The position numbers were made by a program, and so were the translations under genes. From a virus: 64,000 bases of DNA. Positions within the stretch are counted from its first letter, which is position 1. Each line of letters begins with the position of its first letter. Positions 6,250 through 54,284 of the stretch are shown here, piece after piece. The stretch covers positions 16,012 through 80,011 of the IMG/VR virus record IMGVR_UViG_3300023181_000028. One strand, written 5' to 3'. The notes beneath the pieces were generated by a model that saw only the letters and a list, made by a program, of their open reading frames with translations, was not told the origin of the DNA and did not search any database.

Positions 6250-6498
6250 ATGAGAAACAGGACTCCAAGAAAAACAAAAAAGCAATTAGGTAAAATGTTA
6301 ATAATTTACGATAGAGCAGTGCTGCCGATTAACTTATCAATGTTAGACGTTCTAAATAGATTTAAAGACCACAAAGTTTTAGAGTGGGACTCAAGTGCGG
6401 CTGGTAACGTTAGTTGCATGAATATAATGAGTAGGCCAGTAATAATGAATTATAGGAAAGGATTTCAAATAAAAAACAATTCCTTACAAAATCTGTAA
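6250..6498 (+). CDS. portal-fragment protein (paralog of portal residues ~435-478)
   Basis: YDRA..PIN...E.DSSAAGN.S..N: 18/39 ungapped identities with the 46873..49098 product. Confidence 0.8.
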   Translation: MRNRTPRKTKKQLGKMLIIYDRAVLPINLSMLDVLNRFKDHKVLEWDSSAAGNVSCMNIMSRPVIMNYRKGFQIKNNSLQNL

Positions 6499-6536
6499 TA
6501 AAACCCACAACCTTTAAATCCTTACAAAAAATGTAT
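6484..6536. repeat. paired TTACA-N5-TGTAA palindromes, 38 bp period (pair 1)
   Basis: TTACAAAATCTGTAA at 6484; TTACAAAAAATGTAT at 6522 (1 mismatch). Confidence 0.75.
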
Positions 6537-6722
6537 AAATCAGAGAAGTTAATAGAGGAGTTGATCTCCGCCGGAATAATAACAGATAAGCTCTGTGACA
6601 AGGTTAAGGCCAGATTAATAATAAGACAAACCCTGATTGAAATACATAATGAGGCAGTACTTGAAACTGTTATGGCTCACAATAAAGCAACGTTTGTAGC
6701 CCCTCAATATTTAGATAAGTAA
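6531..6722 (+). CDS. hypothetical protein
   Basis: ORF in operon. Confidence 0.6.
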   Translation: MYKSEKLIEELISAGIITDKLCDKVKARLIIRQTLIEIHNEAVLETVMAHNKATFVAPQYLDK

Positions 6723-6740
6723 CCAATAAAAACAAATAAT

Positions 6741-6974
6741 ATGTCAAAGAAAAAATGTACAAAATGCGGAAAGGTTCGCCCCGAATACCAATACAGATGC
6801 GATTGTGGCGGGAGCAATTATTCTTTAACTAGCAAGGACAGTTCAAGTTATAGCACTTCATTTGACTATTCAAGTGATAGTAATGGATCATCTAATTCTA
6901 GCGATAGCAGCAGTAGCTCATTTGATTTCGGTGGCGGCGAAAGCGGCGGCGCTGGATCGGGAGGAGATTTTTAG
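6741..6974 (+). CDS. Zn-ribbon protein with Ser/Gly-rich tail
   Basis: CTKC...CDC; ends SSSSFDFGGGESGGAGSGGDF. Confidence 0.65.
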   Translation: MSKKKCTKCGKVRPEYQYRCDCGGSNYSLTSKDSSSYSTSFDYSSDSNGSSNSSDSSSSSFDFGGGESGGAGSGGDF

Positions 6975-7000
6975 TAATTAATAAATAAAAACAACCATAT

Positions 7001-7456
7001 ATGAGTAAATTTGAATTACCAGCTAATTTCCCTAAAGCAAGAAGGGGTAGCGTTATCCTTAAACAGGTGATACAGGGGACTTCCATCACTGACGGAGGTA
7101 TTATCCTTGCAGATGCCGCCGAGAACGTCCAGCGCCCTAATGTAGGTATTATATACGCCACAGGAGAAGGCGTAGGAGAAGATCTAGCCCCTGGAATGAA
7201 AGTGTATTACAATCAATACGCCAACCTTGAGCTTCATATCAATGGCCGTCCTTATTTCATGATGCATGACGCGGATATCTATTGCATATTGGATGATGAG
7301 AATCGCGTGGCTAATATCATTAAGCCAAAAGATGAAGTTCGCAGAGGTAAAAAGATCACCCAGCAGGCAGGAATGGTTAAGAGATTAGCTGTTAAAAGCG
7401 CTAACGACAAAGACAAAAGAGAAGAAACCTACAAAAAAATAATCAAGAAGAAATGA
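7001..7456 (+). CDS. groES: GroES/Cpn10-like co-chaperonin with basic C-terminal extension
   Basis: T.GGIIL mobile loop, G.I.ATGEG, PG.KVYYNQY, ING..Y..M...DI. Confidence 0.75.
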   Translation: MSKFELPANFPKARRGSVILKQVIQGTSITDGGIILADAAENVQRPNVGIIYATGEGVGEDLAPGMKVYYNQYANLELHINGRPYFMMHDADIYCILDDENRVANIIKPKDEVRRGKKITQQAGMVKRLAVKSANDKDKREETYKKIIKKK

Positions 7457-7785: not shown

Positions 7786-7804
7786 CAATACACGCACACA
7801 AAGT

Positions 7805-7839: not shown

Positions 7840-7863
7840 AATTAGATTATATAAATTTACATT

Positions 7864-9087: not shown

Positions 9088-9099
9088 ATTTTTAGGTTT

Positions 9100-10797: not shown

Positions 10798-10801
10798 AAT
10801 A

Positions 10802-12280
10802 TTATTTTATTAACCAATTAGAATTATTTGAATATACAGTGATTGAGGCGTATAAAGTGCTAACTACTGCGGTTAATCCGCCGTCAATAGTTTGTGATGA
10901 CGTTGTATTTACTGTAGGCGTACCGCCGTTGTTTTTAAAAGTGTATTCATTAGTATTACCTACCGCAGTTGGTAGCGTCACAGTTAAATTGGCAGTGCAT
11001 TCATAATAATAATCAGTATTAGCAGCAGAGCCAGCGGCAGTATTTGTGGATATTGTATTAATAGACCTTGAGAATACAGCCACAGGCTGCCACGACCCCA
11101 ATCCTACACCATTTGTAGTAAGAACATATCCATTTGATTGAGTTCCATCTACAATCTTGATCTTACCGTTAAGCGTCAACACTTGATTTAAAGGATTAGC
11201 GTCGAATATACCATATAGCAATGATCCCGTTTTATCTCCGGCTGTATTAACCCTATCCTGATTGTTTAAGTAAAATACATTACTATCAGTAGTGGAATAT
11301 AATCCAGAATAAGCTCCTAAGAATACATTTCCAGAGCCAGTAGTGTTATTTCCACCTGAAAATATTCCTAACGCAGAGGAAAAGCTTCCCGTAGAATTTT
11401 GAGATAAACTAGCATTGCCCATTGCTGTATTTGAACTTCCTACGTTTTGAGCGTAAAGAGAATAAGCTCCAATGGCAGTATTAAAACTAGAATTTCCTCC
11501 CATTTCCATAGACCTAAGCCCAATAGCCACGTTTTCCGATCCTGTTATGTTAGAAGAGGCTAAAGCAGCCTTCCCAATAGATACGTTACCTGTAGCACTA
11601 GTCATTGAGAATCCAGAGCCATCCCCAATAGCCACATTATTACCGCCAGAAGTTAAACTACCTAATGCGATATACCCTAAAGCCATATTAGAGCTTCCTG
11701 TAGCGAATTTTAAGGCTCCACTACCCAAAGCAACATTCGCTACCCCGGTGGAATTAGTGATAAGAGCATCAAGCCCTATTGCCACATTTAATGTACTATT
11801 CCCCCCGCCGTTAACAATTAATTGTTGGCTATTGAAATTAATAGTTTGATTTGCTCCTGTATATGGAATATAACCTGCTAATGCTGCGGATGTAATATAC
11901 CCCGCCCCATTAGTTAGTTGATTGTTATTGCTTATTATAGTGGCTAAAGAGCCGTTTCCTAATATATATTGACTTGATGTTCCTTGCCAAGCGAATGCTA
12001 AGGTTCCAGAGGTTGTTACAGGGCCACCGGTTACCGCTAATGCTCCACTTATAGTAGCATTAATACTTGTTACAGTTCCGGTTCCGCCACCACCGCCTCC
12101 AAAATAGGGTAATGAAGACCACGGATTAACACCGTCACCAAATTTAAGTCCCTTAAGGTCTAATTCATATCCAGGTTCGCCTTGCGCTAATATTGGATTC
12201 TGAAATAGCCATTGAGCAGAGGTTTTCCTTTTAATCTGAATGACAACATCCTTGAAATTACCATCGTGACCTTTTCCCAT
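10802..12280 (-). CDS. tail fibre (Mtd/hyaluronidase-type N-terminal motif, beta-roll repeats)
   Basis: W...NPILAQGEPGYE....KFGDG...W..LPY; ~14-aa N.A.G..AL repeats. Confidence 0.8.
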   Translation of the reverse strand: MGKGHDGNFKDVVIQIKRKTSAQWLFQNPILAQGEPGYELDLKGLKFGDGVNPWSSLPYFGGGGGGTGTVTSINATISGALAVTGGPVTTSGTLAFAWQGTSSQYILGNGSLATIISNNNQLTNGAGYITSAALAGYIPYTGANQTINFNSQQLIVNGGGNSTLNVAIGLDALITNSTGVANVALGSGALKFATGSSNMALGYIALGSLTSGGNNVAIGDGSGFSMTSATGNVSIGKAALASSNITGSENVAIGLRSMEMGGNSSFNTAIGAYSLYAQNVGSSNTAMGNASLSQNSTGSFSSALGIFSGGNNTTGSGNVFLGAYSGLYSTTDSNVFYLNNQDRVNTAGDKTGSLLYGIFDANPLNQVLTLNGKIKIVDGTQSNGYVLTTNGVGLGSWQPVAVFSRSINTISTNTAAGSAANTDYYYECTANLTVTLPTAVGNTNEYTFKNNGGTPTVNTTSSQTIDGGLTAVVSTLYASITVYSNNSNWLIK

Positions 12281-12591: not shown

Positions 12592-13275
12592 TTAACATCC
12601 GCAACCACAGTCGCATAAAGATTTAGCCTTGTTTATAAATAAATTAGCTTTTACATAATCCTCATATTTCACTGCGGATTCAGCAATAGAAAGATAGGAT
12701 TGTGATAAGATAGCCTTATTAGCTTCTTTACTATCGCATTCGCAATCAATCTCAACCTTATTGAATATCTCATCCATACAGCATTGAGTTGCAAGTTTTT
12801 GCAATATCATATCCGTAGTACTTAAATCGAACGCGGTGGGAGTTCCACTCACTGAGGTGCTACCCGTAATGTTATAAATAACACCATAAGCTCCGTCAAC
12901 TAGCGAAGGAAGATTATAGACCTGAGAAGACCCATACGTATAGCTATTTAACAACATAAAGCCATTTAGAGGGAATGTTGTGGAGTTTAGCTGAGATAGT
13001 ATAGTTTGAGCGCCAAGCCCGTTAAAATTGATTGTAGCGGCTGTAATAGTGCCATTAAGAATAGTAAAGGTATATACCGCAGAAACTTGTAATTGAGTGT
13101 AATTAACAGTTAAAACAAGACCTGTAACATCGTTTATTGCCACCCCATTAGGTGATCCATAACCAAAAGGCGCTGAAACAACATTGTAAGTCGGAGTGAT
13201 ATCAGTAATGTATAAAGTATCGAAAGCATTATTAAGTGCTAAGTCAACTTCTAAGTCTAATTGTGTTACTGGCAT
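12592..13275 (-). CDS. tail hub-like protein, paralog B
   Basis: GYG.PNGVA.NDVT, L.DG.Y, Cys-rich end CDCGCGC; paralog of 13355..14059. Confidence 0.55.
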   Translation of the reverse strand: MPVTQLDLEVDLALNNAFDTLYITDITPTYNVVSAPFGYGSPNGVAINDVTGLVLTVNYTQLQVSAVYTFTILNGTITAATINFNGLGAQTILSQLNSTTFPLNGFMLLNSYTYGSSQVYNLPSLVDGAYGVIYNITGSTSVSGTPTAFDLSTTDMILQKLATQCCMDEIFNKVEIDCECDSKEANKAILSQSYLSIAESAVKYEDYVKANLFINKAKSLCDCGCGC

Positions 13276-13354: not shown

Positions 13355-14059
13355 TCAGCACCCACAATTACACGCGCATATAGATTTAGATTTTTGTAAT
13401 AATTGGTTGTATAATGTGTAATCCTCTTTCTCCTCTGCGTATTTAGCTATATCCAAATAAGCCTTAGACCTCATAGTTTCTTTTAATTTCTTGTCATTAC
13501 ACCCGCAATCAATATCCATGTCATAAAAAGACTTATCTATACATGAACTAGATTCACAGTCTCTTATACAGGTATCGTTGACAGTGTAATCAAATATAGT
13601 TGGAGTGCCATTATCAGAAGCAGAGCCTCTAATCCTATAAGCCACATTATATTGACCGTCAGTTAAAACCGGAAGTGTAATAGTTGTTACAGGAAAAGAT
13701 GAGATATAAGGCCCAACTGTAATAAATGGATTAGAAGATGTTGGCGGGAATGTCAAACTAGGAAGATAAGAAGCGAGGGTAGGCACATTTATAGCACCTT
13801 GCCCGGCAAAATCAACTGCCATAGCCCCTATAACCCCATTAGTTATTAAAAAAGAGAAAACGGCAGTTATCCCCAAATTAACATAAGTGATGGTTATAAA
13901 CATCATAGTTACATCGTTAACCGCAACTCCATTGGGAACCCCGTAACCTAAAGGATTAGACACAGAATTGTAAAGTCCGGTTTCATCAGTTACTATTAAA
14001 TGCTTACAATCGTCACTAACGACAATCTTAGTTTTGAGGTTTATTTGAGTTAAGGCCAT
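13355..14059 (-). CDS. tail hub-like protein, paralog A
   Basis: Same motifs as 12592..13275; ends CACNCGC. Confidence 0.55.
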   Translation of the reverse strand: MALTQINLKTKIVVSDDCKHLIVTDETGLYNSVSNPLGYGVPNGVAVNDVTMMFITITYVNLGITAVFSFLITNGVIGAMAVDFAGQGAINVPTLASYLPSLTFPPTSSNPFITVGPYISSFPVTTITLPVLTDGQYNVAYRIRGSASDNGTPTIFDYTVNDTCIRDCESSSCIDKSFYDMDIDCGCNDKKLKETMRSKAYLDIAKYAEEKEDYTLYNQLLQKSKSICACNCGC

Positions 14060-14082: not shown

Positions 14083-17000
14083 TTAATCTTCCTCGATAAA
14101 TTCTATTCCGGCTTTAATAGCTTTTGAGTTAGGCAACGCACTAATAATATCTTTACTTCCCTTTTCAACATCTAATTTCATTACATCTTCCATTACATTT
14201 ACGAACTTACTTACAGTGGCTTGCGCGGCAACCGGAGATTTAACAAAGAATTTAATATTATCAATGTCAAAGATGAAGAGTAAGTTAGAAAGGGCTTGGT
14301 CAATAGCATCACCCTTTTTTCTCTTATTTTTATCGTCGTCTCCACCAAGCCTCAAAGCCATAAACGCAGCAACCACCATTAAGCCCTTTAGATTAGACAT
14401 AGCGTCTTTATTCTTTGTGAATCCCTCTATTCCGTCCTTTTTAATAGCCTCTTTAAGATCAGTGAAGCCTTGCCCTAAGAACGCTCTATAAGTACCTCTA
14501 TGAGTCACACCATTAGCGTCTATGTATTCTTCGCCCATTCTCTGCTTAAATGCATCTGGAACCCATATTTTGAATTGCCCAACCAATTTACCGAACTCTC
14601 CGGCTTGGTAATTTCTTTTATCGGCCTCTCCATATTTACCTTGAATATCCGACACTGTTTTAATATTGGCAATCGCGCGGCTTTTAATCCCCTTCTCGTC
14701 AGCACCTTCTTTTAACTTAACCTGTCCAGTACTTTCGTTGTACTCAATACTATTAAAATCCTTATCACTCATTAATCCTAAGAATGCTGAACCTTGTATG
14801 TAATACTCACCACCCCTTGTTAATCCATGCGCTAACATTTCAAACAATTTACCTGCGTATAATTTAGGATTAGAATCAAAATCTAAACTAACTGCATTGT
14901 ATTTACGGATAATAGCAGCAGCCTTTTTAGGATTCTGTATTAACCGCTTGGTTCCTTTGTATTGCGCCTCAGCACTTTCTTTTCTTATAGTATTATAAAT
15001 ACCCATTGCTATATTAAACCCACCTGCGCGATATGCAAACGCCATCACATTCAATGAAGTTAACTTGCGGATTATTCTGAAAAACGTGTCTAATTCTGGC
15101 CCTAACGCTCCAACTTTTTCTTTCTTGAAAATATGAAGATCAGTCCATTGTTTTACCCATTCCGCAACATTCTCTTTCTTTTCATGCTCCTTAAATCCAA
15201 CTTGATTTAAATACTCTATAGATTGAATGTAAGGCAATAGTTTGCCGATATGTTCTGTATGTGTGTAGTCATCAATGAATGAATGCGCCGCCTTGTAGAA
15301 GTCCTTAGAATAACCCCTGGACTTATCTCTTGGTTTGTTGAATTTACTTTTTAATCTTCCATCTGTAGATAAATTGTACTCAGCTCCACCAGTTAAGGCC
15401 AAAGGATTTTCTTTCTCATCTACATTAGTTCCGGTTTTAAGTTGCCTTCTCGCGGCCAATTGATATTTAACCATCTGCAACAAAGCCTTCATCTTATCCA
15501 ATGCCCCCTTATTACCCTGTTTGATTAAATCTCTCTCAATCTCCCCATAAGACATTACTTTATTACCGTACTTAATCCTTACATTCTGGATGTTATGACC
15601 ATTACCCAAATAAGCACTGAACGCCTGTAAGATGCCTTCCTCTCTAAACGATTCCGCCACTCCCTTATCCACCTTTAACACTTCATTGTTAAGTTGATCT
15701 TCATCCATGCCCTCAAATTGCTTATTTCTAAGATCGTTGAGACCCAACATAAACTTTAAGAATTTAGTTTGCGCGGGAGTGAAGCTCTTAGCCTTAGCTT
15801 CCTCTAAAGTGTAATAACGCCCGTCAGGATGCTCTACAAATTCAAAGTATTTAACTGAACCTGACATTACAAATTCCTTAGCCTTGTCAGTGATGCCTAG
15901 AGATTTATTTTTCTCCTTTATAACTTCCTTGCCGATATTCTCTAATTCTCCTTTGAGTTTATCGCGCTCTTGTTGCATGTCGAAATAAGTCTCGTCAAAT
16001 TGTTTGCTGAAAGATTGTAATTCCGGCTGGTTTTGGGTCATATGACCTAAGTTCTTCATAAGAACATCTTTGGCGGATAAGTCAGTTTTATTGGCTTGCT
16101 CTTCTACATATCCCTTTAACCCTTCCAGTTCCGTTTTACGTTTAACGAACATCCGGTAGCCTATTTGCTGCTTTAATTGATTTAGTTTAGGTTCTTTCGC
16201 GGCATCTGCAAAATCCCCACTCACCATCAGATTATAAGCCTCTAATAACCGCTCATCCGTCATATCTTCTAACCTACCTTCACTTAATATAGAAGACAGC
16301 ATATCCACATCCTCTTTGTATGCAAACCACTTAGAAGCATCTCTTTTGGCCTCCTTGTCGATGTTAGCCTTAAACACCTTTAATTTCTCTTTTTGCTCCT
16401 CAGTATATTTTTCATCCGCCAAAGCGTCTTTAATAAACTGCAAGTCTTTACGAATCTGCTCTAAAGATCTTCCTAATACATTCTCCCTGTAAGATTCCAA
16501 TGACATAGTTAATTTCTTAGCTAGGTCTTTCGCGGACATTTCATCCAATGTTTTAAAAGGCTTTTTCTTAGATAATTGCTCTTGTTTACTTTCTCCAACC
16601 TTATTCCTTGTATTAACGCCTCCTATTATCTGTTTAGCTAAGCTCTTAGCAACGTTCTTGTCTATTCCGAGTAATTGCTTAAGTCGGTTAAATATGTAGC
16701 TTAAAACGGCTTCAAATTTATTCCTGACTGACTCTTTATCAAAGATCAATGAACCTTCCATTCCTATCGCTTCTGCCAACACTTCCTTACCCAACATCTC
16801 TTCATTCAGCTCAGGGTATCTTTCCTTAACGTCATCCCATAGCGGAGTATCTTTAAGTTGCTTAATCCCCACTTGAATAACTTTATTGTTATATCCAATA
16901 GCATCAATCATAATGTGACCAGCTTCGTGAATAGGCGTGTCAATACCAGCATAATCAGGATTGATTTCGATAGTGTTGCCTATTAATCTTCCGGCGAACT

Positions 17001-20000
17001 TAGCCCCTTCCTTATACACCACTTTAACCTTTGGAAATGATTTTCTAACCCTCTCCACAACTTTCTGTATCTGACCTTTACGATCACTTGACTTCTGGAA
17101 TTGTCCGGTTTCCGAAAACGCCTGTTCCCTTGCTTGTTCTTTCTCTAACTCAGCATTCTCTTCCTCTTCTGTAAGTCCGCGATCAGGATTGACATTTTCA
17201 AGTAAACTCTGATACAAAGGCATAGTATATCGCTCTGACGTTCCGCCAGTGCCGGATAAAAACTTAATATTGCCCGTTTCTTTTACATCCTCTACAAAGT
17301 CCAATAACTTCTGTAATGTTTTACTATCCTTACCCTTCTCAATTTGTTTTAAGGTTGCGGCGTATTCCCGCGCATCCAATCCTACATCCGGTCTAAATTC
17401 TTGATTGCCTTGAATGCCAATATTAAAGACACCTAACTTCCTAAGTTCTTTATACAAATCTTGGGCAGGCATCTTTAAAAGGTCATTAGAGCGTCTTATA
17501 GCCTTGTTTATTGAAGAGTTGTCATATCCCTCTCCGATTAAAGATTCTCTCTCTAATTCGTTTACAGTGACAGTAGCGGGGGCTTTTCTAACCTTCTCCT
17601 CCACTTTAGTTGTAGTTGGACGTTCTTTTACAGGTTCCGGTTTAACCACAGGAGCTTTTACAGGTTCAACTTTAACTTGTGGCTTTTCAGGCTGCTTAAC
17701 ACCCTCAATTGGTTTAAGTCCTTGTTGCTGCAAAGCCACCATTCTTTTAATCTCATCCGGCGTATAAGCGCTATTACCCTTCTCTTTCTCCTTTACCGAA
17801 ACGATGTATTTCCCCGTAGACTTATTATAAACGTTTAGAATACGTAAATTCTCTGTCTTTCTAGGCTTACCATTAGCGTCAACCTTATCAGCTTTAATAG
17901 TCTGTATCTTAACTGTAACAGGCTCTTTAAACTTAGAATACTCTCTACCATCACTATCAGTAGTTGTTTCTTCGCCGCTAGGAAAATTCTCCCTCTCCCC
18001 TGTATATTCATCTCTCTTAACAGATCTTCCAAACTGAACAAATTGTCCTGTTCCGCCAAGATTTAATTGCCATACCTCATTCTGACCACCTTCAATAAAA
18101 GCATCCATCTCTCCATTAAGATCAGGATTGGCGTCAAAATAATCATGCAATATCTCTTTTCTTTCTAAAGGCTTCTGTTTGTTAAATTCAAATGTTCCAT
18201 TATCATCCTTCTGACCAAACTTAGGAGCATTCTTTCTTCTTTCAGATTTCTCCACTACAGTTTCCGTCGGAGTTTCCACTTCCTCAGTAGTAGTTTTTGT
18301 TCCGCCGTATCTCTTTCCTAAATCCTCGATAGTTGATTCTTCTGCTTTCTTTTCTTCGTTCTTAACAACCTTACCGACAGTATCAGGAGCAACAGTAGTT
18401 TCTTTCTTGACATTCTCTTTTAATATAATAGCATCCAGTTCCTTTTGTAGTCCCTTCACTAATTCTTTCTTGCCAGCCACCTTAGCAGCCTCAATAGGAC
18501 TCATTTTTTTAATCTCACTCTCATCTGTAGGGATTTCAGATTTAATTCCCTCTATTGTAAAGGATAGGTCAAAAGACTTCTTTCTTTCTTCGTCTGTTAA
18601 ATCCAATCCTTTAGTTTGATCGTGATAAACATTGTAAGCGTCTAACTTAAATTTAGCCCTCTCAGCATCTTCGGGAGTCATTTCATCATTAGCCACAGAA
18701 TTATCAATATCAGCCTTTAAAGCTGTGATTGCCTCAGTTCCCTTCTTTACAGTCTCATACGCATTGTTAGATTGCTTCTCCGCGCGATCAGCTTTTCTTT
18801 TCTGACTCACACCAGCTAATGCGGGGCCACCAGCACCTAAAGCACCAGCCAAAGCACTATTAACATATTCCCCAAATGATTCTAAACTAAAAGGATCTGT
18901 TTTAAACTTCTCCTCTCCACTTATCTTATCATAAATATTCTTAGCAGCATTTAAAGCAAAAGATTGCGCGGCTTCCGTTCCTGCTTCGCCTGCGATATTA
19001 CCAGCCAATTGACCTGCAAACGTGCTGTTTAATTTAGTTGCGGCAGTCGTTGTGGCGTTGTACAGACCTTCTAATGACTCCTTTGTTATCTTACCCTCAC
19101 TATCTTTTAATAATCCAGCAGCGAGGCTATTAAACATCTCTTTCTTGCCGTTACGGGCTAGTTGGTTCTTAATGAATATCCCCTCAGTACCCCCAACCAT
19201 TTCTAATAGGGCAGTGGGAATAGTGGCAACCGAAGCAAAAGCATATTTATCCCTTCCTTCTAGTCCAGCTTGTTCAGCAGCAGTTAAGGCTTCATCGTAA
19301 TTAACCATGTATGAACCCGCAAATCCATTAGCTAATTTACCTGAGTTAGAAGCTCCCGATAAGAATGAAGCGGCCTTACCACCTTCTGAGATCAATCCGG
19401 CACCTTCTGCGCCCGCTCCTAATGTTCTTGTAGCACCCCCAATACCTTTAGCCCCTACAAGGAAAGAGGTGATAGATTCCATCCCCTGTAATACAGCACC
19501 CTGAATATTGTTTTTAGTAAAGTCATATCGAGAAGGGTCAAAGAAATCACTTATCCCTTTTAATTCTTTAGTGTCGAATATTTGTTCATTCTCATATTCG
19601 GGAGTTTTGAATTTAAGATAGTCAGCACTATTCTTCATAGTCTGGTACCACGGCAATTCTTCTCCTGTAATGGCTCCGTATGCGATTTGAGGCAAGTTAG
19701 CCACCCCTTCGGCGGCACCTATCACCCCATTCACTAAGTGTTTAGCAGCAGACTTAATAAATCCATCGTCATTAGCACTCTCTTGGCTTCCCCATATACT
19801 TGCAACGTCATAACCTTCTGGCGGACGTTCATTATTAGCAATAGGAACAGGCTTTTGAACACCATTTACATCTTTCATGTAGTATTTGGTTCCGCCGGAT
19901 TGTTTAGGATGTTGACCTTGTATAGTTAGTATTGCATCAGATATATCTTCAACAGAGGCTCTACCTTGCTTCTGAGCAATAGCAATATTCTTAATGATTT

Positions 20001-20208: not shown

Positions 20209-20211
20209 ACG

Positions 20212-20219
20212 CAAATATA
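20212..20219 (-). promoter_or_regulatory. sigma-A-type -7 element TATATTTG; leaderless arrangement
   Basis: Only 3 nt between element and ATG at 20208. Confidence 0.65.
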
Positions 20220-44102: not shown

Positions 44103-45596
44103 TTAAGATTTATAGATAATACCGCACTCTTGAGTGTTGTAAATAACCATTAAATCTTCTTTTAACATTGCGTATTTCATTACGTCTTCCTCTGAAATCA
44201 TTGTTTCATTGGCACCGGTCATACCGTTAAACTTAGCTGTTACACTTGCACGGTTTAATCCGTTTGCTTCTTTAGCAAGGATTTCCATGTTCATGTTAGA
44301 ACCAGAACCTAAATTCATAATGAATAAGGTAGAGCTTAACAATAGTTTTCCGTCAGCACCTCTCTCAGGGAACGCAGCTTCGTCATCAAACAACGGGTGT
44401 TTAACAAGGATCATTGTGTTACCATTGATGTTGAATTTACCGAAGTTGTATCCGGCATCCACGATTGCACCACCAGCTTGTCCATTTTGAGTTACATTAG
44501 TAACGATTTGGATGTTTTGATTACCAAGTAAGTTAATCAGTTTCTTTTGACCATTTGCATAGCCATCAGTACCGGTAATACCTACCCATGTGAATCCTGA
44601 CACCTTATCGCCTTTTTTCTCAAGTTGACCCATCATGTCAGCGATATCGTCTTCTGTCCACTCTCCGTTTAAGCCTGAACCGTATGCTACGTTACCGCCA
44701 GCAACTTGCTCTTCCCAGCCGTCACCTTGAACGATCTCAAGACCTGTTTCAGTATCAATTAAGTTTGAACTTGCACGGATAGTACCATCAGCATTTTTCA
44801 TACTTGATACACCAAACAACTTGTTACGCTCGTCTTCCATTACGAAAGTAGCTTGCGCTTGCGCTAATTCTTGATACATCCAACCTTTAGAGAAAGCTCC
44901 ACCTTCACCTTCGTAGTTATACCAAAGTACATTTGAAGCAGCTCCACCGGTGATACCAACAGTTTTACGTTGAATAGTCATGTGGTTAACAAACTTACTA
45001 GGCGCAGCCGAACGACCGTAACCACGAAGTGATTTCTCTCCATATGAAGTGTAAACTCCAAAGCAGGTTTTAGTTCCTTGTTGTGGCGCTACGTGAGTTG
45101 CATAGCTAAACAAATCACCAGATGGAGATTGGAAGCTATATAAGTAACCCGCAGAAGGGGAACCTGTAGGGAAAGCCATTACACGAGCGATAAAACGACC
45201 TGTGTAGAAAGCAACGTTCATTCCCGGTACTAAGTGCTTATCGCGCATTAACAACTGGAAAGAACCGTCAGGCTGAGTAGCACCAACTTGTTTAATGATC
45301 TCAGATGCTTTCTCAATACGACCCATAACGTCAAATTGATAAGCGTTTGCTCCGATACCTTTACCTTTAGTTGTTACTTGAGGAATTTTAGTACGCTCAG
45401 GGTTAACGATACCATAAGGTGTTACCGCGCCGGATACTAAGATTGTAGTTAAAGCTCTACGATTCGCATACTCTAACATGTTTCGGATTGCAGGCTTATT
45501 GGCCTGATTTTTCATAAGGTCATTGTTAGTAACACAAGTGTCTTCCGAAAATACACCTTGATTAATACTAATTCTACCTGCGTGTGATGATGGCAT
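44103..45596 (-). CDS. major capsid protein (crAss-type HK97 fold)
   Basis: 497 aa after portal and scaffold; N.MT.QRK, G.G..EQ, TG..G, G..F..F..NG, HPLFDD. Confidence 0.9.
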   Translation of the reverse strand: MPSSHAGRISINQGVFSEDTCVTNNDLMKNQANKPAIRNMLEYANRRALTTILVSGAVTPYGIVNPERTKIPQVTTKGKGIGANAYQFDVMGRIEKASEIIKQVGATQPDGSFQLLMRDKHLVPGMNVAFYTGRFIARVMAFPTGSPSAGYLYSFQSPSGDLFSYATHVAPQQGTKTCFGVYTSYGEKSLRGYGRSAAPSKFVNHMTIQRKTVGITGGAASNVLWYNYEGEGGAFSKGWMYQELAQAQATFVMEDERNKLFGVSSMKNADGTIRASSNLIDTETGLEIVQGDGWEEQVAGGNVAYGSGLNGEWTEDDIADMMGQLEKKGDKVSGFTWVGITGTDGYANGQKKLINLLGNQNIQIVTNVTQNGQAGGAIVDAGYNFGKFNINGNTMILVKHPLFDDEAAFPERGADGKLLLSSTLFIMNLGSGSNMNMEILAKEANGLNRASVTAKFNGMTGANETMISEEDVMKYAMLKEDLMVIYNTQECGIIYKS

Positions 45597-46872: not shown

Positions 46873-49098
46873 CTAAACCAAATCAGTGTTATTTATAATG
46901 TCATTTTCAGTCTGTAAAGACGTTAAATGCATATCGTTATTTGCCTTGTTATTGTCCACTTGCATCTGAACCTGACCCTTTAATACAATCTCTTCTTTCG
47001 CAGAATTTTGAATATCCTCACGATTTTCATTGGCAATCTGAATCTGAGTTTGAAGGTTAGCTTCGTTCATTTGAGCCTGCGCTTGGTTATTAGCCTCGTT
47101 TTGTTGCTGAATAACTTTTTGCATCTCAACCCAGCTGTTCTCTAATTTATTCTTCATCTCCGCCACAGTGGTGGATAAAAGAACATTTAAAGCATCCATT
47201 GGTCTGATATCCTTAGCATTTAAAGAAAACTCCATCATTCTCTTAATGTCCTGCTTGATTTCCATATAATGTCCGCCATCTTCCACGTGAACACCATAAT
47301 CCCTATATCCAATATCTTTAGTTAATTGCAAGTATTTTAACTTACTAGCCCCTAAAATATGTTCTCCCTTCTCTAATTTGTAAAACGCCCAAGATATAGC
47401 AGAACTATCTACAATCCCCTTCATAACCCTTGTAACAAAGCCATTCATCCCATAAAACAGGGATTCGGTGATTATCCGCGAATTAGCAATGTCATTCTGA
47501 GCATTAGTAGCCGTTGAACTCGCGGCAGTATTACCCTCTCTACCCTCATTAATACCTGTGATCTGACTCAAAGTATTAATAATATCCTGCTTCATAGCAA
47601 GTAAAAACTGAAACGATTGACTTAAACCTAAATCAAGTTCCTTAAACATATTCTGAGGATCTAAGTTCCTTTGACTTGTATTTCCGGCAGCACTCGAATC
47701 ATATTCATAAAATTGATCGTTATGAATATTGTACATCACTTCCTTAACAGTTTTATTAATTGGCTGTCCCGCGCGATCATACGTAAACACCTTACCTTTT
47801 GCCCTTGCAAGCTCTTTTAATATTTGATACATACATATATCAAACATATTATCAAAGTTCTCTATAATCTCCTGTAATGACACTGTAATGCCATTAACCC
47901 TACCGTGTATATAACCATAATAAGAACTACTCATTATATGAGCGGGCTTGTCAACACTTCTCTTCTGGAAGTAAGTCCTACGCATATTTACATCCACACA
48001 TCCACCAATTCTCGTGGCTTCATACTCATCTTCCTTATACTTAGTTATAATCTCGTACTCTCCACTTTCAACCTTCTTATCGTGATACTCCCTATTAGAT
48101 TCATATTTTTCCGGAATCATAGGTAAATCAATGTAATCCACATCGTCCTCCGAATCAAACATGGCCTGATCCGCTGATTTCTTAACCCTCTTTGTATATT
48201 CCGGTGTAACAGATTTCCATTCAATGTGCAATACATCACACACTAACTCTCCGCCAACCATTCTCATATATCCCCTACCTATTCCATCCGGCCCCGCGTA
48301 AGAACCCCAATTATCTCTGGCGTTCTCCAACATTAACCTTTGGTCTTTAGTGAGGTTATATCTCAATAAAATCTGGTGTAAAGGCATCACCCTTCTACAT
48401 CCTAATATAGGACTCTCTTCTAAATAATCATCTCCGTCAACCGCCTCAAAAATAGCATTCCTTACATCTATATTATGCAACTTCACCTCTCCGGTTTCGT
48501 CGCGTTCCACTTGCATAAAACAATGGCTATGCAACTCTAAGTTCTTAAAAGCATCTCCAAACTTCTTTTTAGCATCTAAATCCAATACTTGGTTATTAGC
48601 AATGATTTGCATAATATCCTCACATTTATCTTTAGGAGCCATCTTATCCCATAAAGGATCTTCTAAACTATCAGGAATAGGAGCGCCTTCCATTACATCT
48701 ACACCACCCTTATTCTTTAAATCCATCAATTCGGGCTTGGCTATCATAGCCCCAATCATAAAGTCTAATTGCTGCATTTTTGCAGACATAGCTTCTGAAT
48801 TAATAGTGGTGACAGTGGAAGATAACGGACGTTTTAAAAACTCCCCATGCAATAGGTCAATCTTAGTTCTACCTAAGCGATATGCAATGTATTTAGAACG
48901 GTTTTGTTTACCATAAGTCTTCTCTAACCACGCAAGACTTCCCGGCTGTTTAACGCCGTTGTAAGAGTCTAATAAACGGGTCATTTTACCGCTATAGCTG
49001 TTATTGTTTATTAGAAGCTGCTCGGCAAAATCCAAATGGGATTTTAACCAGGCTTCATTCTTGTCTTTAAGCGGTAAAAGTTGACTAGGAAACTGCAT
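46873..49098 (-). CDS. portal protein
   Basis: FP.Q......K...W N-terminus; L.GE..KRP; EWKS; ITGI...REG; follows TerL. Confidence 0.9.
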   Translation of the reverse strand: MQFPSQLLPLKDKNEAWLKSHLDFAEQLLINNNSYSGKMTRLLDSYNGVKQPGSLAWLEKTYGKQNRSKYIAYRLGRTKIDLLHGEFLKRPLSSTVTTINSEAMSAKMQQLDFMIGAMIAKPELMDLKNKGGVDVMEGAPIPDSLEDPLWDKMAPKDKCEDIMQIIANNQVLDLDAKKKFGDAFKNLELHSHCFMQVERDETGEVKLHNIDVRNAIFEAVDGDDYLEESPILGCRRVMPLHQILLRYNLTKDQRLMLENARDNWGSYAGPDGIGRGYMRMVGGELVCDVLHIEWKSVTPEYTKRVKKSADQAMFDSEDDVDYIDLPMIPEKYESNREYHDKKVESGEYEIITKYKEDEYEATRIGGCVDVNMRRTYFQKRSVDKPAHIMSSSYYGYIHGRVNGITVSLQEIIENFDNMFDICMYQILKELARAKGKVFTYDRAGQPINKTVKEVMYNIHNDQFYEYDSSAAGNTSQRNLDPQNMFKELDLGLSQSFQFLLAMKQDIINTLSQITGINEGREGNTAASSTATNAQNDIANSRIITESLFYGMNGFVTRVMKGIVDSSAISWAFYKLEKGEHILGASKLKYLQLTKDIGYRDYGVHVEDGGHYMEIKQDIKRMMEFSLNAKDIRPMDALNVLLSTTVAEMKNKLENSWVEMQKVIQQQNEANNQAQAQMNEANLQTQIQIANENREDIQNSAKEEIVLKGQVQMQVDNNKANNDMHLTSLQTENDIINNTDLV

Positions 49099-49261: not shown

Positions 49262-51283
49262 TTAAAATCCAAACTTTCCGTGATCTTGCTCTTCATCTTC
49301 CAAATTAAAGTTCTCAGTACGCATCATCAACTCTCCGTTACTACCCATTACAAACTCCGGCAAATCAAATCTATTATCCTTATCCTCATTGTTCTGATCT
49401 CTCGGCCTTACATCACAGCTTATATCTTGCATTAAAGCCAATCCATAAGCATCCGCCAAGTCATTATCACTCCCTATCTCCACCTCATCAAAGTTACCTA
49501 ATTGATTAATTAATTCAGGGAACCAATTATTCTGAACATTATCCACGATATCCGCTTGCATTAAACCGGACATTCTTGGTCTACTAAAATTAGTTAACCT
49601 AACACCCTTCTCATGTGTCTGCTCACTTGTTTCGCTCTCGAACTTTCTAGGACGGTCTGCTAAGAACTTCCATCCGCCATGCTCCCTAAAATATTCCATT
49701 ATAACTCCGGCACCCACATCCACAAGAACATTTCCTATAAGATTGTAATATACAGAAGCCATTAGGCATAACTCATAAAACTTCTCTTTTCGTTTAGGTC
49801 TACATGAAATAACTGCAATAGGAGCCTGAGACATTGCATTGTTAATATGATTAGCCCTTATTCTAATACACATTGCCCCTAATGATTTAGAGGCTTTAGC
49901 GGTGTCCTGGTCATAAGAATCAAGGCCGCTCGTGTGCAAATTCTGATAGCCTTTACGCGGATGCTCACCATCTATAATCCAAATACATTCATCTTGGTTA
50001 TCAAATGGTTTTAAAGGGGTGCAAATAACAGCCAAAGGCATTTTAATCATACCCTTGTCATCTTTCACCCATTCCATCTTATACTTAGTCCATCTTGGAT
50101 GTTCTAAAGCGTCAATTATAGCCATTTGATTGTTTAACTTCTCTATATCAAAGTTGTTAACCACTGTCTTTCGGAAGATTTCAGTTTCATTTAAAGGGTT
50201 ATTCTGTAAGTCCTCGTTGTATTCCTTTAGGTTGCCAGCTTTTAAGAATGCTGCCCTTCTATCCACAATAGCCTTTTCCGCCAAAGCTAAATCTTCCACC
50301 CCTTGTAATTGGAATGGTTTATATTTTTTAAGTAAGTCAGATTGAGTAGGAAGCCTTCTATTTGCCTCAGTTGCATTGCCATAAAAATACATTCTAGGCG
50401 CGGGAATTAAGAATTTAATCATTCCATAACTAGGATCGCTTGCGTTAGACCACAGCTTCTTAAAATCCCTAGAACCCTTGTTGACGTTGCCCCCGGTGCC
50501 AAAAAATAGCCCCATTCCGACCTTTTGACTACCATTCATTAAACAGTCATTAGTGGCGGATTTAAACTCTAACAACTTCTCAAACTCTCCAATCTCCTCC
50601 GCGATAACATCATTCAAATAAAGACCCTTAAACATATTAGGGTTAATGTGCATTGTTCTGGCATATATAGTATTCTTAGTTCCCTGCTCTTCAAAAGCTC
50701 CTAATGAATTACGAATATTGTATCCAGCGATAATCTCATCATCGTTGTCCAACAACTTCTTAACAGAAAACTCAGGAGGCATACCGCTATCCGCAAATCT
50801 CCATTTAGAAAGAAAATCATCTACGTAAGTTTTATTACCCGCGGCAACCCCTCCCTTATAACCCGGAAAGAATCTCCATCCATAATCAATAACCATTGTA
50901 CTGGCAGCCTCAGAAATACCCTTTCTACGGCCTTTAGCGCATACTATATCCTTTCCGACACTCTTAGCATATTCAATCAAATAAGCAAGCTCTAAATGCA
51001 AATCTATCATGTCAGGGGTGATAACCCCCTTAATGGTAGACATTCTTTTATAATTAATATAGAAATAGAACCTTCCAGGTATAAATACTCCTCCTGTTTG
51101 ATATCCGTGTATACACCTTCTTAACTCCTCAGTCCAGTACTCTTCCCATGCAGGGGTTCCGATAACTCTTTTATCTCTTATAGAGTCAGCATATTTAGGA
51201 ATGCCATATTTAATTACAGGGGCAGGCTCAAATCCCTTTCCTTTAAAATACGGAGCGCGGAGAACTATAGGACTTGAACTCAT
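49262..51283 (-). CDS. terL: terminase large subunit
   Basis: K.RRKG.S Walker A-like, VIAEEIG Walker B, FGTGG, GLDSY and D..DA nuclease motifs. Confidence 0.92.
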   Translation of the reverse strand: MSSSPIVLRAPYFKGKGFEPAPVIKYGIPKYADSIRDKRVIGTPAWEEYWTEELRRCIHGYQTGGVFIPGRFYFYINYKRMSTIKGVITPDMIDLHLELAYLIEYAKSVGKDIVCAKGRRKGISEAASTMVIDYGWRFFPGYKGGVAAGNKTYVDDFLSKWRFADSGMPPEFSVKKLLDNDDEIIAGYNIRNSLGAFEEQGTKNTIYARTMHINPNMFKGLYLNDVIAEEIGEFEKLLEFKSATNDCLMNGSQKVGMGLFFGTGGNVNKGSRDFKKLWSNASDPSYGMIKFLIPAPRMYFYGNATEANRRLPTQSDLLKKYKPFQLQGVEDLALAEKAIVDRRAAFLKAGNLKEYNEDLQNNPLNETEIFRKTVVNNFDIEKLNNQMAIIDALEHPRWTKYKMEWVKDDKGMIKMPLAVICTPLKPFDNQDECIWIIDGEHPRKGYQNLHTSGLDSYDQDTAKASKSLGAMCIRIRANHINNAMSQAPIAVISCRPKRKEKFYELCLMASVYYNLIGNVLVDVGAGVIMEYFREHGGWKFLADRPRKFESETSEQTHEKGVRLTNFSRPRMSGLMQADIVDNVQNNWFPELINQLGNFDEVEIGSDNDLADAYGLALMQDISCDVRPRDQNNEDKDNRFDLPEFVMGSNGELMMRTENFNLEDEEQDHGKFGF

Positions 51284-51810
51284 TTATTCTTTAAAATATT
51301 ATCGTATTGTTTAGAGCTAGCCTGAATCTTCTCTAGCCACGAAAGAGTCATTTTACCCTTCACTACACCCTCATTTAACGTTTCCTCGTCGATTTCCTTC
51401 TCTAAAGCCGCAATACTCTGCCTCAATGAGGCAATAGCATCTGTGGTCTTTTTTACAGATGTAGGACTGTCGTCATTTTCAAGTAATTGTAAGAACTTGT
51501 CAATCTTTTGCTGATATTTCCGCGACACCTCAATCTTTGGATTGTATTGAAGCCTCATGTAATCATCAACGGCCTTAACTATCTTATTGCTTTCCCAAAA
51601 TTTAGGAATATTGTCATCAAAGGCATGATACATTGCCTTTCTCTTTCTCTCGTGATCGGGAAACTGTTTATAAATCGAATGATAATCGCAATGTAACACC
51701 ACCGCCAGCATCTCTTTCTCAGTTAAGGCTTCAAAGGAGATAACCATTTTCATCACCTCCGGTCTCAAGATCTGGTTATTGCGATGGTCAATTTCTATTA
51801 AGTAACTCAT
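51280..51810 (-). CDS. putative terminase small subunit
   Basis: DY.S.Y, helical, V.G C-terminal strand; coupled to terL. Confidence 0.5.
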   Translation of the reverse strand: MSYLIEIDHRNNQILRPEVMKMVISFEALTEKEMLAVVLHCDYHSIYKQFPDHERKRKAMYHAFDDNIPKFWESNKIVKAVDDYMRLQYNPKIEVSRKYQQKIDKFLQLLENDDSPTSVKKTTDAIASLRQSIAALEKEIDEETLNEGVVKGKMTLSWLEKIQASSKQYDNILKNK

Positions 51811-51986
51811 GTAGATTTTTTTATTATAGATTTCACTTCACGCCAAAACACCTTACCTAAAGTGTCTACCTGAGTCATTATAGTGTCAATAGCTATACAG
51901 CAACACCTCTGTACCTCCTCCGAATTTAAGTCATCAAACTCACTGTACTTATAATATAACTCATCTGCCTGTTCTTGTGGACTCAT
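51807..51986 (-). CDS. small phage protein (59 aa, not in ORF track)
   Basis: MSPQEQADEL...C..IAID.I...FW.EVK. Confidence 0.7.
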   Translation of the reverse strand: MSPQEQADELYYKYSEFDDLNSEEVQRCCCIAIDTIMTQVDTLGKVFWREVKSIIKKST

Positions 51987-52143
51987 AGTTCAATTTTTTA
52001 ATTTCTGTTTTTAAGGAATCAATCTTAAATATTAGATACACCTCCCTGTCATGATTCTTCTTCATTTCCTTGTACGCCACGCCTAGATACACTAAACAAA
52101 GTAAGCATATTCCCGCGATTATAGTTTCTCTAGCCCTGTCCAT
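51961..52143 (-). CDS. small TM + coiled-coil protein
   Basis: N-terminal hydrophobic helix. Confidence 0.6.
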   Translation of the reverse strand: MDRARETIIAGICLLCLVYLGVAYKEMKKNHDREVYLIFKIDSLKTEIKKLNYESTRTGR

Positions 52144-52931
52144 TAAAACGCCTCCAATTCCGGTAATTGCACCGGCTCTAATTCGTTAATAATCTTTTCT
52201 TTGAAGTAATCTAGTAAATCTTTAATATCCCTTTTTAAATAGGTCATAGGTATCACCTTGTTTGTATATTGTATTACCTTGCCCGTAACATCCTTTTTAG
52301 GGATAATCATATCTACAAACATCCTTTCACATTTTCTGCCGGTAAGCAACTCAAAATGATAAGCGTAATACGATAATTGTATATTGATTTTGGAATACTT
52401 CGTGTTTGGCAAATGGTCTAATGGATAATTAAGCCATGCCTGACCTTTAGACTCATAACTCATACCCTTATCAAAACATTTAAAGTCGCTGATATGAAAC
52501 TTACTATCCTTTCTATTGCTACATAACGCCAACTTATCTAAACTTCCAGCAGTTCTCGTAATAGTATTATACACTACCAATTGCTCATGACAGCTATGAT
52601 AGTCTTTATACTTACCTAAAACGTGTTCAACGATACCCTTTAAATCCCTATCAGATTCCAATATTTGACCCGTCTGAGCGTATAACTCAAGCGCGGCATC
52701 TATACGCGTACCTTCATCAGTTGCATTGCTCCATTGGCCTAAAACAGCCTCCTTTGATCTACCTTCTGACTTTGCCACCTGCCCGGCTATAAAATTAGCA
52801 TCGAATTTAGGTACGAGGAAGTTATAAAGTCGGCTGAACGACATATATTCCTTTCCTTCGTTATCGAAGTACTTGTGAACTTTCTCGTCCAGCCGAACTT
52901 TTTGGTCATATAAGTTATGAATCCTTGACAT
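52143..52931 (-). CDS. PD-(D/E)XK exonuclease
   Basis: HKY, GT.I, E..V, AGSLD, ISDFK, QLS.Y. Confidence 0.8.
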   Translation of the reverse strand: MSRIHNLYDQKVRLDEKVHKYFDNEGKEYMSFSRLYNFLVPKFDANFIAGQVAKSEGRSKEAVLGQWSNATDEGTRIDAALELYAQTGQILESDRDLKGIVEHVLGKYKDYHSCHEQLVVYNTITRTAGSLDKLALCSNRKDSKFHISDFKCFDKGMSYESKGQAWLNYPLDHLPNTKYSKINIQLSYYAYHFELLTGRKCERMFVDMIIPKKDVTGKVIQYTNKVIPMTYLKRDIKDLLDYFKEKIINELEPVQLPELEAF

Positions 52932-53671
52932 TAAAACGCTTCGTCTTCGTCTGTTATTACTGGAACTTCTGCTTTAACCTCTTTGGATTTCTTAGGCTTT
53001 TTAGTTTCAGATAGCGTTACTTCGCCACCATCCAACTCAAACTCCTCTTCAACTACAATAGAAAGATCTTCCGCCAATTCTGAATTGTGAATAATGATAC
53101 TACCGAACTTGTTTTCCAAAAGGCTTGTAGCGAAATCGCGTTGCTCATCAAGAGTTAATCCGTTAAATGTGTCCATTGTCATAGACTTCTCTTTTCCGGC
53201 CTCAATCCATCTTTGAGTTAATTCTTCGTCACTCACTTTTTTCTCACCCTCCAAATACAATTTGGTTTCAGTTAGGATATCCTTAGCGATAGCCACAACA
53301 TCTTCATAACCCTCATAATTGTCGATTTCCTCCACTTTAGGAGTGTTTAGCTTAATGTTCTTGTTCCCGAACACTTCTCTTTCTCCGTGCAATACAAAGC
53401 CCTCTGAATCAAATTCCAACCCTACAACCTGAGTCTCATAAAGCATGAATTTCATCTGATCTTCATCCTTTTGATTAGACATTTGACAAATATTCAATAA
53501 GTGAATACGAAGGTCTTTAAATAAATCTTCTAAGTCTTTATGGATTGGGTCTTTCGGCGACTTCACCATATCCGTGTTAGAAATTCTCTTTCCTTTTGTT
53601 TCAGGGAGGATGTAAACGACTTTTGCGCCATTAAACCCGTTGTTTTTTAGGGTGATCTTTTTTATATTCAT
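52931..53671 (-). CDS. conserved hypothetical protein
   Basis: IKKI.L, PIH.DL, LNTP, E...Y..G.K; acidic tail. Confidence 0.7.
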   Translation of the reverse strand: MNIKKITLKNNGFNGAKVVYILPETKGKRISNTDMVKSPKDPIHKDLEDLFKDLRIHLLNICQMSNQKDEDQMKFMLYETQVVGLEFDSEGFVLHGEREVFGNKNIKLNTPKVEEIDNYEGYEDVVAIAKDILTETKLYLEGEKKVSDEELTQRWIEAGKEKSMTMDTFNGLTLDEQRDFATSLLENKFGSIIIHNSELAEDLSIVVEEEFELDGGEVTLSETKKPKKSKEVKAEVPVITDEDEAF

Positions 53672-54006
53672 TTTTCGTTATTTACTTGTTTAATTCCAGT
53701 TGGTTGGTATAATCCGGTTTTAGTCATTCTAATAAATTCTTCCTCTATAACAGATTTGAATTTATCAATACCCTCTTCTCCCGTAATAATTATACATTTT
53801 TTCTCTTCCGCCTCAACTTGCCTAAACCAATCTCCCTCATCATCGTCTATTTCATCTGGATGATTAGCGTAATAATTTTTCATTCTTTCATTATCCATAC
53901 GCCATTTATCCAATTCTTCACCCTCCATGATAATACTATCATCAAATGGACTTGCCATGTAATTAAATGTCCGGCGTTGTTGATATTCATCGTTACTAGC
54001 ACTCAT
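53668..54006 (-). CDS. hypothetical protein with capsid-like motifs
   Basis: M..ER.K, GD.W..QV, ITG..G colinear with capsid residues 253-345. Confidence 0.6.
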   Translation of the reverse strand: MSASNDEYQQRRTFNYMASPFDDSIIMEGEELDKWRMDNERMKNYYANHPDEIDDDEGDWFRQVEAEEKKCIIITGEEGIDKFKSVIEEEFIRMTKTGLYQPTGIKQVNNEK

Positions 54007-54284
54007 GCCTTATTATTTAATTTATTATAAAAATCTTCGTTTATGAAGCCTTCCGACTTACCATCCTCAAAATTATACCACAAAACTTGACTTTCCCCAG
54101 ACCCACTTATTGTAAATGTTTTTCTCTGAATAGTCATGTGGTTAACCCATTTGTTTTTCGGCGGAGAAGGTAAACAGGTTTTTAATTCATCTTCTTTTGA
54201 AATTAAAAACTCCGGCACATTAGATTTAATCGCCGCGCCAACAAATAATACTCCTAAAGTTTTTAAGAAGCCTCCCCTATTCAT
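54003..54284 (-). CDS. capsid-fragment protein with Tat-like/hydrophobic N-terminus
   Basis: K.VNHMTIQRKT..I.G...S.VLWYN.E, 20/29 identical to capsid residues 201-229. Confidence 0.8.
   Translation of the reverse strand: MNRGGFLKTLGVLFVGAAIKSNVPEFLISKEDELKTCLPSPPKNKWVNHMTIQRKTFTISGSGESQVLWYNFEDGKSEGFINEDFYNKLNNKA

Follow-up and report, generated by a model that had tools for sequence, protein, structure and literature searches.

Two small accessory genes of an uncultured crAss-like phage are very probably ancient, selected paralogues of single segments of its portal and major capsid proteins

The window analysed here is 64 kb of an 80,011-bp viral contig from a leaf-litter metagenome (IMG/VR record IMGVR_UViG_3300023181_000028; GC 37.6%), and its source is an uncultured crAss-like phage. 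Two small open reading frames (ORFs) of this window, at 6250-6498 and 54003-54284, are with high probability separate accessory genes, each an ancient paralogue, maintained by selection, of one short conserved segment of a virion protein: the portal in the first case and the major capsid protein (MCP) in the second. We refer to them as the mini-portal and the mini-MCP. A first-pass annotation of the window had described the two ORFs as partial copies of the phage's own portal and MCP, and this is what we find at both positions. The two genes, their parts and their parents are as follows.

6250-6498, plus strand: mini-portal gene, 82 amino acids (aa); residues 1-13 are basic, residues 14-60 form a clip-like core, and a C-terminal beta-hairpin specific to the family follows
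6289-6429, plus strand: clip-homologous core of the mini-portal, residues 14-60, with conserved Y20, D21, P26, S48 and N53 (from hhalign, column conservation and AlphaFold2 (AF2))
46873-49098, minus strand: portal gene, 741 aa, parent of the mini-portal (phrog_6547, 9e-51; crAss001 gp20, PDB 7qog, E 1e-10)
47605-47802, minus strand: portal residues 433-498, the segment common to the mini-portal, putatively the clip between two stem helices (gp20 ~455-520)
54003-54284, minus strand: mini-MCP gene, 93 aa, with ATGA start/stop overlaps with both neighbouring genes
54219-54284, minus strand: signal-peptide-like N-terminus of the mini-MCP, residues 1-22, with a charged n-region containing FLK, an 11-residue hydrophobic core and a small-x-small site
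54051-54197, minus strand: MCP-homologous core of the mini-MCP, residues 30-78, with the invariant motif VN[HR]MTIQRK (from hhalign and a clade hidden Markov model (HMM))
44103-45596, minus strand: MCP gene, 497 aa, parent of the mini-MCP (Pfam PF23898 Crass_capsid, 2e-19; phrog_11589)
44904-45041, minus strand: MCP residues 186-231, the segment common to the mini-MCP, between the E-loop insertion domain and the spine helix

An all-versus-all BLAST of the 412 ORFs of at least 35 aa in the whole 80-kb genome, a comparison proposed in the first-pass annotation, returned the two parent-copy pairs as the top non-tandem pairs, directly behind one pair of tandem paralogues. Residues 31-73 of the mini-MCP align with MCP residues 187-229 at 53% identity, ungapped and with 10 consecutive identical residues (E 4e-13), and residues 17-74 of the mini-portal align with portal residues 437-498 at 34% identity (E 3e-9). 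The local-alignment scores of 115 (mini-MCP) and 85 (mini-portal) compare with 32 ± 5 and a maximum of 57 for shuffled sequences (n = 2000). When the profile of each mini-family was compared with that of its parent, hhalign gave 96.9% (E 1.4e-10) for the MCP and 96.8% (E 2.9e-10) for the portal, and clade HMMs (from 18 MCPs and from 19 portals) matched these two small ORFs of the genome and no other (E 3.7e-13 for the mini-MCP, 1.8e-7 for the mini-portal). The search of small ORFs against the larger proteins of the genome likewise gave nothing at E < 0.001 beyond the mini-portal, the mini-MCP and the ORF 53668-54006. The last of these (minus strand, 112 aa), immediately downstream of the mini-MCP, forms a third, weaker pair with residues 139-185 of a 238-aa coiled-coil-like protein (21167-21883, plus strand). 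Identity is 34% across 47 aa (E 8e-7 for the pair), and the alignment score of 74 exceeds the highest of 2000 shuffles, 65, although the charged, coiled-coil composition may inflate it. A second colinear MCP fragment within the same ORF (Crass_capsid, E 0.045) was considered and rejected as a chance match, with 0.85% in hhalign and no match to a clade HMM.

Because DNA identity within the aligned parts is ~52% and identical residues are mostly encoded by different codons (the same codon is used at 9/23 of them in the MCP pair and at 4/17 in the portal pair), we take the duplications to be old and the motifs to have been held at the protein level in both copies. The same DNA identity, together with the lack of an adenine-specific pattern, rules out an origin from the template and variable repeats of a diversity-generating retroelement. 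Between two related IMG/VR loci, L002 and L016, the mini-portal genes are identical, and the other pairs are saturated, so that no ratio of nonsynonymous to synonymous substitution rates was obtainable. Several further statements of the first-pass annotation are borne out. Both ORFs are intact, diverged genes with orthologues rather than duplication debris (~45 clusters for the mini-portal, two orthologues for the mini-MCP). Each has an N-terminus unrelated to its parent (the basic residues 1-13 of the mini-portal; the hydrophobic, signal-like residues 1-22 of the mini-MCP), and each lies in a non-structural gene cluster, the mini-portal beside NinB-like, RusA-like and GroES-like genes and the mini-MCP beside helicase and exonuclease genes.

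The family of the mini-portal was collected with a profile of the window protein and an IMG/VR orthologue (L002:3546-3770), searched against 1.84 billion representative proteins. This gave 47 proteins at E < 1e-3, 12 of them below 1e-10 and the window's own protein included, which are nearly all 57-94 aa long. One of the 47 is a 737-aa portal (P0041), matched at residues 434-487, and one is a repeat protein (P0033); the family itself numbers ~45 clusters at 50% identity. In an alignment of 26 members Y20, D21 and S48 are invariant and P26, N53, P63 and D76 nearly so, a basic PRKxKK N-terminus is found in many members, and most have a terminal strand, 'IKFIDxS', that is lacking in portals. No member matches Pfam or a functional PHROG, and neither mini-protein, nor the members P0009 and P0012, has a match among GenBank phages. 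Scans of IMG/VR with the single mini-proteins found no mini orthologues, scans with sub-alignments of the mini-portal family found L014, L015 and L016, and the ESM Atlas held nothing usable for the mini-portal. P0033 (646 aa, six matches) was discarded as unrelated, having only a DAAGNVS-type motif in common with the family. Three longer proteins, P0021 (189 aa), P0028 (179 aa) and P0029 (152 aa), have a clip-like module fused to an extra domain, which is C-terminal in the first two and N-terminal in the third and has no Pfam match above noise; if identified, these domains could hint at a partner.

The portal segment shared with the mini-portal aligns in sequence with crAss001 gp20 residues ~459-520 and adjoins, on the N-terminal side, the inner stem helix 519-541 of that protein (helix from PMC10172136). 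In T4 the clip links the two stem helices, is made of three strands and one helix and lies outside the capsid (PMC4493910). Because of this position beside the stem helix and the canonical portal topology we read the shared segment as the clip, of which the mini-portal would be a free-standing copy. Its AF2 model, made on the family alignment (predicted local distance difference test (pLDDT) 87.8), has a basic N-terminal helix at residues 7-14 followed by a strand, a helix and three strands. Foldseek placed crAss001 portal chains in the top rows for this model, if weakly (E ~4), and VIA-align superposed residues 14-68 of the model on gp20 457-516, also weakly, with Z 2.0 and a root-mean-square deviation of 3.6 Å over 48 residues. 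In an unbiased scan of 48,161 chains the sole match with Z of at least 2 was a chain of the phage GP4 portal-tail complex, again weak (Z 2.0). The full clip-stem-wing-crown architecture is absent: the protein has 82 aa, no PHROG or Pfam portal match, and a model without stem helices. The mini-portal is a paralogue of the clip alone and not itself a portal.

Each of the 15 distinct clade portals has a clip segment that matches the HMM of the mini-family (E 1e-12 to 0.05), and portals and minis alike conserve an L/I-x-Y-D...L-P stretch, S48 and G-N; the portal-invariant residues G434, Y455, N459 and D460 are not retained in the mini-portal. In a maximum-likelihood tree of the 50-column core a single branch separates portal clips from all 46 minis (SH-aLRT 81), and none of 500 label shuffles clustered equally. 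One old split between portals and minis would fit better than repeated recent copying, the tree being weak at 50 columns. The window mini-portal is 38% identical to the clip of its own portal, tied with that of L019, the closest relative (large terminase (TerL) 89%, MCP 82% and portal 77% identical). For the L002 mini-portal, identity is 13% with the resident clip and 33% with a different one; for that of a third locus, L030, the values are 36% with the resident clip and 41% with others.

In the window the mini-portal belongs to a tightly packed plus-strand operon and starts 5 nt past the stop of the preceding ORF. In L002, L016 and L030 it is found just upstream of the terS-like, terL and portal genes, with an exonuclease gene on its other side; in L002 and L030 the mini-portal, terL, first ring/neck and portal genes are contained within 6 kb. 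The family was not found in the available parts of four related contigs (fragments of 24-56 kb), and a divergent member, L014, lies on a 74-kb phage contig that is itself a fragment. Some other features of these neighbourhoods may be recorded here. Two genes downstream of the window mini-portal is the GroES-like co-chaperonin gene (7001-7456, plus strand; phrog_3188, 1.8e-8); in T4 a GroES analogue is required for folding of the capsid protein. The L014 contig carries a 270-aa ORF (5707-6519, minus strand) that is largely ~20 tandem copies of an 8-residue AYDSA-x-V-K/E unit. Directly after the L030 mini-portal is a 61-aa ORF (7134-7319, plus strand) with a lipoprotein-type signal, a hydrophobic run ending in GGC. 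It lies between the exonuclease and terS-like genes, a slot that seems to gather small accessory genes, and the same slot in the window holds two ORFs of ~60 aa (51807-51986 and 51961-52143).

The homology of the mini-MCP covers MCP residues 186-236 only and stops close to where the spine helix begins. The protein, with 93 aa, lacks the spine helix and complete A- and P-domains, and it has no Pfam match even at E 10. An AF2 model of the MCP, made from four sequences and of low confidence (pLDDT 34), has a helix at 243-260 and, before it, strands at residues 84-156. In the crAss001 MCP, residues 79-180 make up the E-loop insertion (I) domain (PMC10172136). From the elements of the model and the position of the crAss001 I-domain, the copied piece would be the hairpin between I-domain and spine helix, a placement in the capsid suggested by the order of elements only. 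Searches of solved structures with the single MCP sequence (E up to 0.01) and with MCP profiles (E up to 1 and 10) found no chain. Residues invariant among clade MCPs are mostly retained in the mini-MCP (T207, Q209, R210, G217, L224 and W225), as are N204 and K211, which are invariant in the four-sequence MCP alignment.

Among 5.8 billion proteins the mini-MCP has two orthologues, P0003 (77 aa, 47% identity) and P0004 (84 aa, 34%); an IMG/VR search with the mini-MCP profile gave five matches, all of them full-length MCPs. All three members of the family combine a VN[HR]MTIQRK[ST] core with a leader consisting of a charged start, FL(K/G), a hydrophobic core and a small-x-small site. On the Kyte-Doolittle scale the three leaders peak at residue 9, with 2.0-2.4 for a span of 11 residues; for a span of 19 the maximum is 1.5-1.8. 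The small-x-small site, assigned by eye, is VGA/A or GVA/M. The twin-arginine motif is true in P0004 (RRRFLG) and reads RGRFLK in P0003. In the ESM Atlas the mini-MCP has feature matches of 0.81-0.84 to proteins exported by the twin-arginine translocation (Tat) pathway, which is below the level that counts. Judged by these sequence features the leader is signal-peptide-like and probably Tat-derived, and the mini-MCP may be exported.

The mini-MCP gene lies in a cassette that is exchanged between strains.

53686-54280, minus strand: swappable cassette that comprises the mini-MCP and the greater part of ORF 53668-54006 (read joint 53685/54281 in the X2 strain)

In the X2 strain, which comes from a second leaf-litter run of another study and has flanks ~90% identical to the window, positions 53686-54280 are replaced by 374 other bases, and one boundary of the cassette is the stop codon of the upstream gene. 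The syntenic site of L019 holds only an 84-aa homologue of the N-terminal part of ORF 53668-54006, and the mini-MCP is absent. The mini-MCP has thus been gained or lost recently, at a hot spot of accessory genes. A second swap was seen in the X2 strain, where 55094-55694 (601 bp) is replaced by 260 other bases; it lies inside ORF 55090-55710 (minus strand), the 206-aa product of which matches many PHROGs of unknown function via a short N-terminal domain.

The first-pass annotation had joined the two genes in one 'system', and here it does not hold. L002, L016 and L030 carry the mini-portal and no mini-MCP was found in these loci, the syntenic slot included; L019 and the X2 strain likewise lack the mini-MCP, and the two families differ more than 10-fold in size. 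The genes are inherited independently, and what links the mini-portal and the mini-MCP is their mode of origin only; they are not a two-gene system.

As a whole, the best explanation that we can offer, one to which we give somewhat less than an even chance, is that these selected, separate paralogues act by interface mimicry. Taken by itself, interface mimicry by both mini-proteins is a tentative proposal, possible without being probable. A free clip would take up the site at which the large terminase or the first neck/ring protein receives the clip. DNA packaging or head-tail joining would be held up or prevented as a result, whether in the phage itself, as a matter of timing, or in co-infecting relatives. 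The mini-MCP, exported or membrane-tethered, would present the conserved capsid strand to that strand's partner in the virion. The candidate target on the packaging side is encoded in the window.

49262-51283, minus strand: large terminase

The partner site of the clip is the most likely place of action for a free clip because the residues conserved in all clade clips are retained in it, and because the residues kept are clade-wide rather than lineage-specific, it could act on relatives as well as on its own phage. In T4 the clip is the docking site for the terminase gp17 and the neck protein gp13, and packaging in vitro is inhibited by a 24-residue peptide of the clip, which binds gp17 (PMC4493910); in crAss001 the clip touches the tail barrel (PMC10172136). 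A complex prediction for TerL and the mini-portal scored 0.01 against a mark of 0.32, the partner's own fold being uncertain in the program, and counts neither for nor against binding.

A number of observations weigh against interface mimicry. The structural matches of the mini-portal model are weak (Z 2.0), and its identification as a free-standing clip follows from position and topology and not from a domain boundary stated for crAss001. In the three genomes paired, the minis are not nearest to the resident portal, and co-variation with it could be expected of a mini that competes tightly for the terminase of its own phage. In the window the mini-portal is placed among recombination genes, on the strand opposite the packaging genes and not beside them, and no crAss-type terminase, capsid or portal gene was found on the 74-kb contig of L014. 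On the capsid side, the MCP model (pLDDT 34) is too poor to tell which surface the hairpin faces. The window mini-MCP reads NRGGFLK, which lacks the twin arginines and does not match the S/T-R-R-x-F-L-K motif, and the Tat-signal HMMs PF10518 and TIGR01409 gave no match at E 10, short models that often miss true signals.

Set beside the portal clip itself (crAss001 gp20, PDB 7QOG/7QOI; T4 gp20 279-358), the mini-portal has homologous sequence, conserved residues in common and a predicted strand-helix-strands core, but it stands alone (82 aa) without stem helices, wing or crown and adds a basic N-terminus and a C-terminal hairpin. The T4 gp20 peptide 288-311 is the sole experimental precedent that we found for a clip piece freed from the portal ring (PMC4493910); that peptide is synthetic, whereas the mini-portal is a whole clip-like domain and a natural conserved family, with terminase binding putative. 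A retained duplicate of a virion protein gene is also familiar from T4, in which gp24 is a paralogue of the MCP gp23 that keeps the whole fold and is built into the virion. The two genes described here are retained duplicates of the same kind, but they keep 45-60 residues of one surface element only. In the literature searched, no natural stand-alone clip-domain or capsid-hairpin mini-proteins are described, and no Pfam or PHROG family covers them.

The main alternative, which we regard as unlikely, is that the two proteins are positive co-factors of assembly or packaging. The clip would then be a chaperone or adaptor that keeps portal monomers or the terminase competent, or would bridge DNA to the motor via its basic N-terminus, and the mini-MCP would anchor capsid assembly to the membrane or nucleate it there. 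The position of the mini-portal next to terS-like, terL and portal genes in three loci would suit such a role, as would the conserved PRKxKK-type N-terminus of many members. The beta-sheet of the T4 clip, moreover, is the main-chain contact among portal subunits, so that a free clip could cap a monomer (PMC4493910). A core co-factor should, however, be universal, and the mini-portal was not found in the available fragments (42-56 kb) of several relatives, the mini-MCP is missing from the closest ones, and the position of the gene varies.

The first-pass annotation had proposed immune decoys, a function that we consider quite unlikely. Such fragments would occupy the portal and capsid sensors of the host while leaving them inactive, and the full-length proteins made late would thereby be protected. 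It is true that sensors of the STAND/Avs type recognise the folds of conserved phage proteins including portal, terminase and MCP (PMC13581612), that both mini-genes are patchy accessory genes, the mini-MCP in a swap hot spot typical of conflict genes, and that the mini-portal sits within a non-structural operon. The mini-MCP nevertheless fits a decoy poorly, because the signal-like leader present in 3/3 members would take it out of the cytosol, where sensors such as Avs, CapRel and Lit act. The mini-portal corresponds to a 45-residue clip only and does not follow the sequence of the resident portal, and the documented partners of the clip are terminase and neck. The two genes do not co-occur in relatives, and we found no self-derived decoy of this type in the literature searched. 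Trigger-competing anti-defence proteins such as DSAD1, which counteracts the tail-tube sensor DSR2 (PMC11087589), offer a parallel. The mini-proteins too are small phage proteins that could interfere with the recognition of a virion protein, and a probable difference is that they derive from the virion protein itself. What stands of the earlier proposal is that these are selected accessory genes, and the cassette-swapping slot of the mini-MCP suits a gene of the conflict type; the decoy function assigned to them is unsupported.

For the mini-MCP alone, superinfection exclusion can be considered. Here the exported mimic of the capsid strand would meet related phages on their way in and bind, in the envelope, one of their virion or ejection proteins. 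This too strikes us as rather improbable. In its favour are the signal-like leader, the location of the gene in an accessory hot spot, the ESM Atlas matches to Tat proteins, which are a lead only, and the conservation of the motif across clade MCPs, through which it could act on relatives. There is, however, no evidence of this MCP segment touching ejected proteins, and the capsid itself does not enter the cell; the family has only three known members, two of them with a degenerate twin-arginine motif. Small phage proteins with export- or anchor-like segments do bring about superinfection exclusion, among them T4 Imm and Sp, T5 Llp and HK97 gp15. The mini-MCP is comparable to them in its small size, its N-terminal export- or anchor-like segment and its variable slot, but it has no sequence relation to them and its body is a capsid-protein hairpin, which to our knowledge is the case for none of these proteins.

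Neutral duplication debris, to which the short shared segments and the absence of the mini-MCP from the nearest relatives might point, is very improbable, given that motifs are kept although synonymous sites are saturated, that the ~45 mini-portal clusters have conserved length, invariant residues and family-specific elements lacking in portals, that lengths of 57-94 aa with N- and C-termini of their own speak against mis-called frames inside portal genes, and that the mini-MCP orthologues retain leader and motif at 34-47% identity and the window gene is ATGA-coupled to both neighbours.

As to the genome that carries these genes, a comparison of the window DNA with GenBank phages found no resembling phage, and the relatives with 47-82% identical MCPs are metagenome and IMG/VR contigs only. 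Elsewhere in the window, two tandem paralogues (12592-13275 and 13355-14059, both minus strand; 41% identity over 234 aa, E 3e-56), neither of which has a PHROG match, adjoin a tail-spike- or fibre-like gene at 10802-12280. Two giant ORFs on the minus strand encode proteins of 2043 aa (14083-20214, no PHROG match) and 1478 aa (26748-31184, matching virion structural protein PHROGs); we presume that they may be cargo or RNA-polymerase-like proteins typical of crAss-like phages.

The statistics, the orthologues and the gain or loss of a gene at strain level separate, in this case, the selected paralogues, for which they provide the evidence, from decoys, which are attractive only. The mini-portal family is directly testable, being short (~80 aa), with a confident in silico fold and the invariant or near-invariant residues Y20, D21, P26 and S48. 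If it binds terminase or neck, this would be a first: a natural modulator, encoded by a gene, that consists of a portal's docking domain. It would open a way to study how crAss-like phages schedule packaging or sabotage it, a step for which this abundant, mostly uncultured group has hardly any genetic tools. The mini-MCP suggests that a conserved capsid strand is reusable behind an export-type signal, and points to a partner of that strand that would be worth mapping in capsid structures. More speculatively, and with no great likelihood, phages of several lineages may keep self-mimic mini-genes of single virion-protein surface elements as weapons or shields. In this phage a free clip would then titrate the terminase or neck protein of co-infecting relatives, or keep the clip epitope hidden from sensors of the portal, and the exported mimic of a capsid strand would intercept incoming relatives in the envelope; if true, such genes would form a class of their own, not described before, in conflicts between phages or between phage and host.

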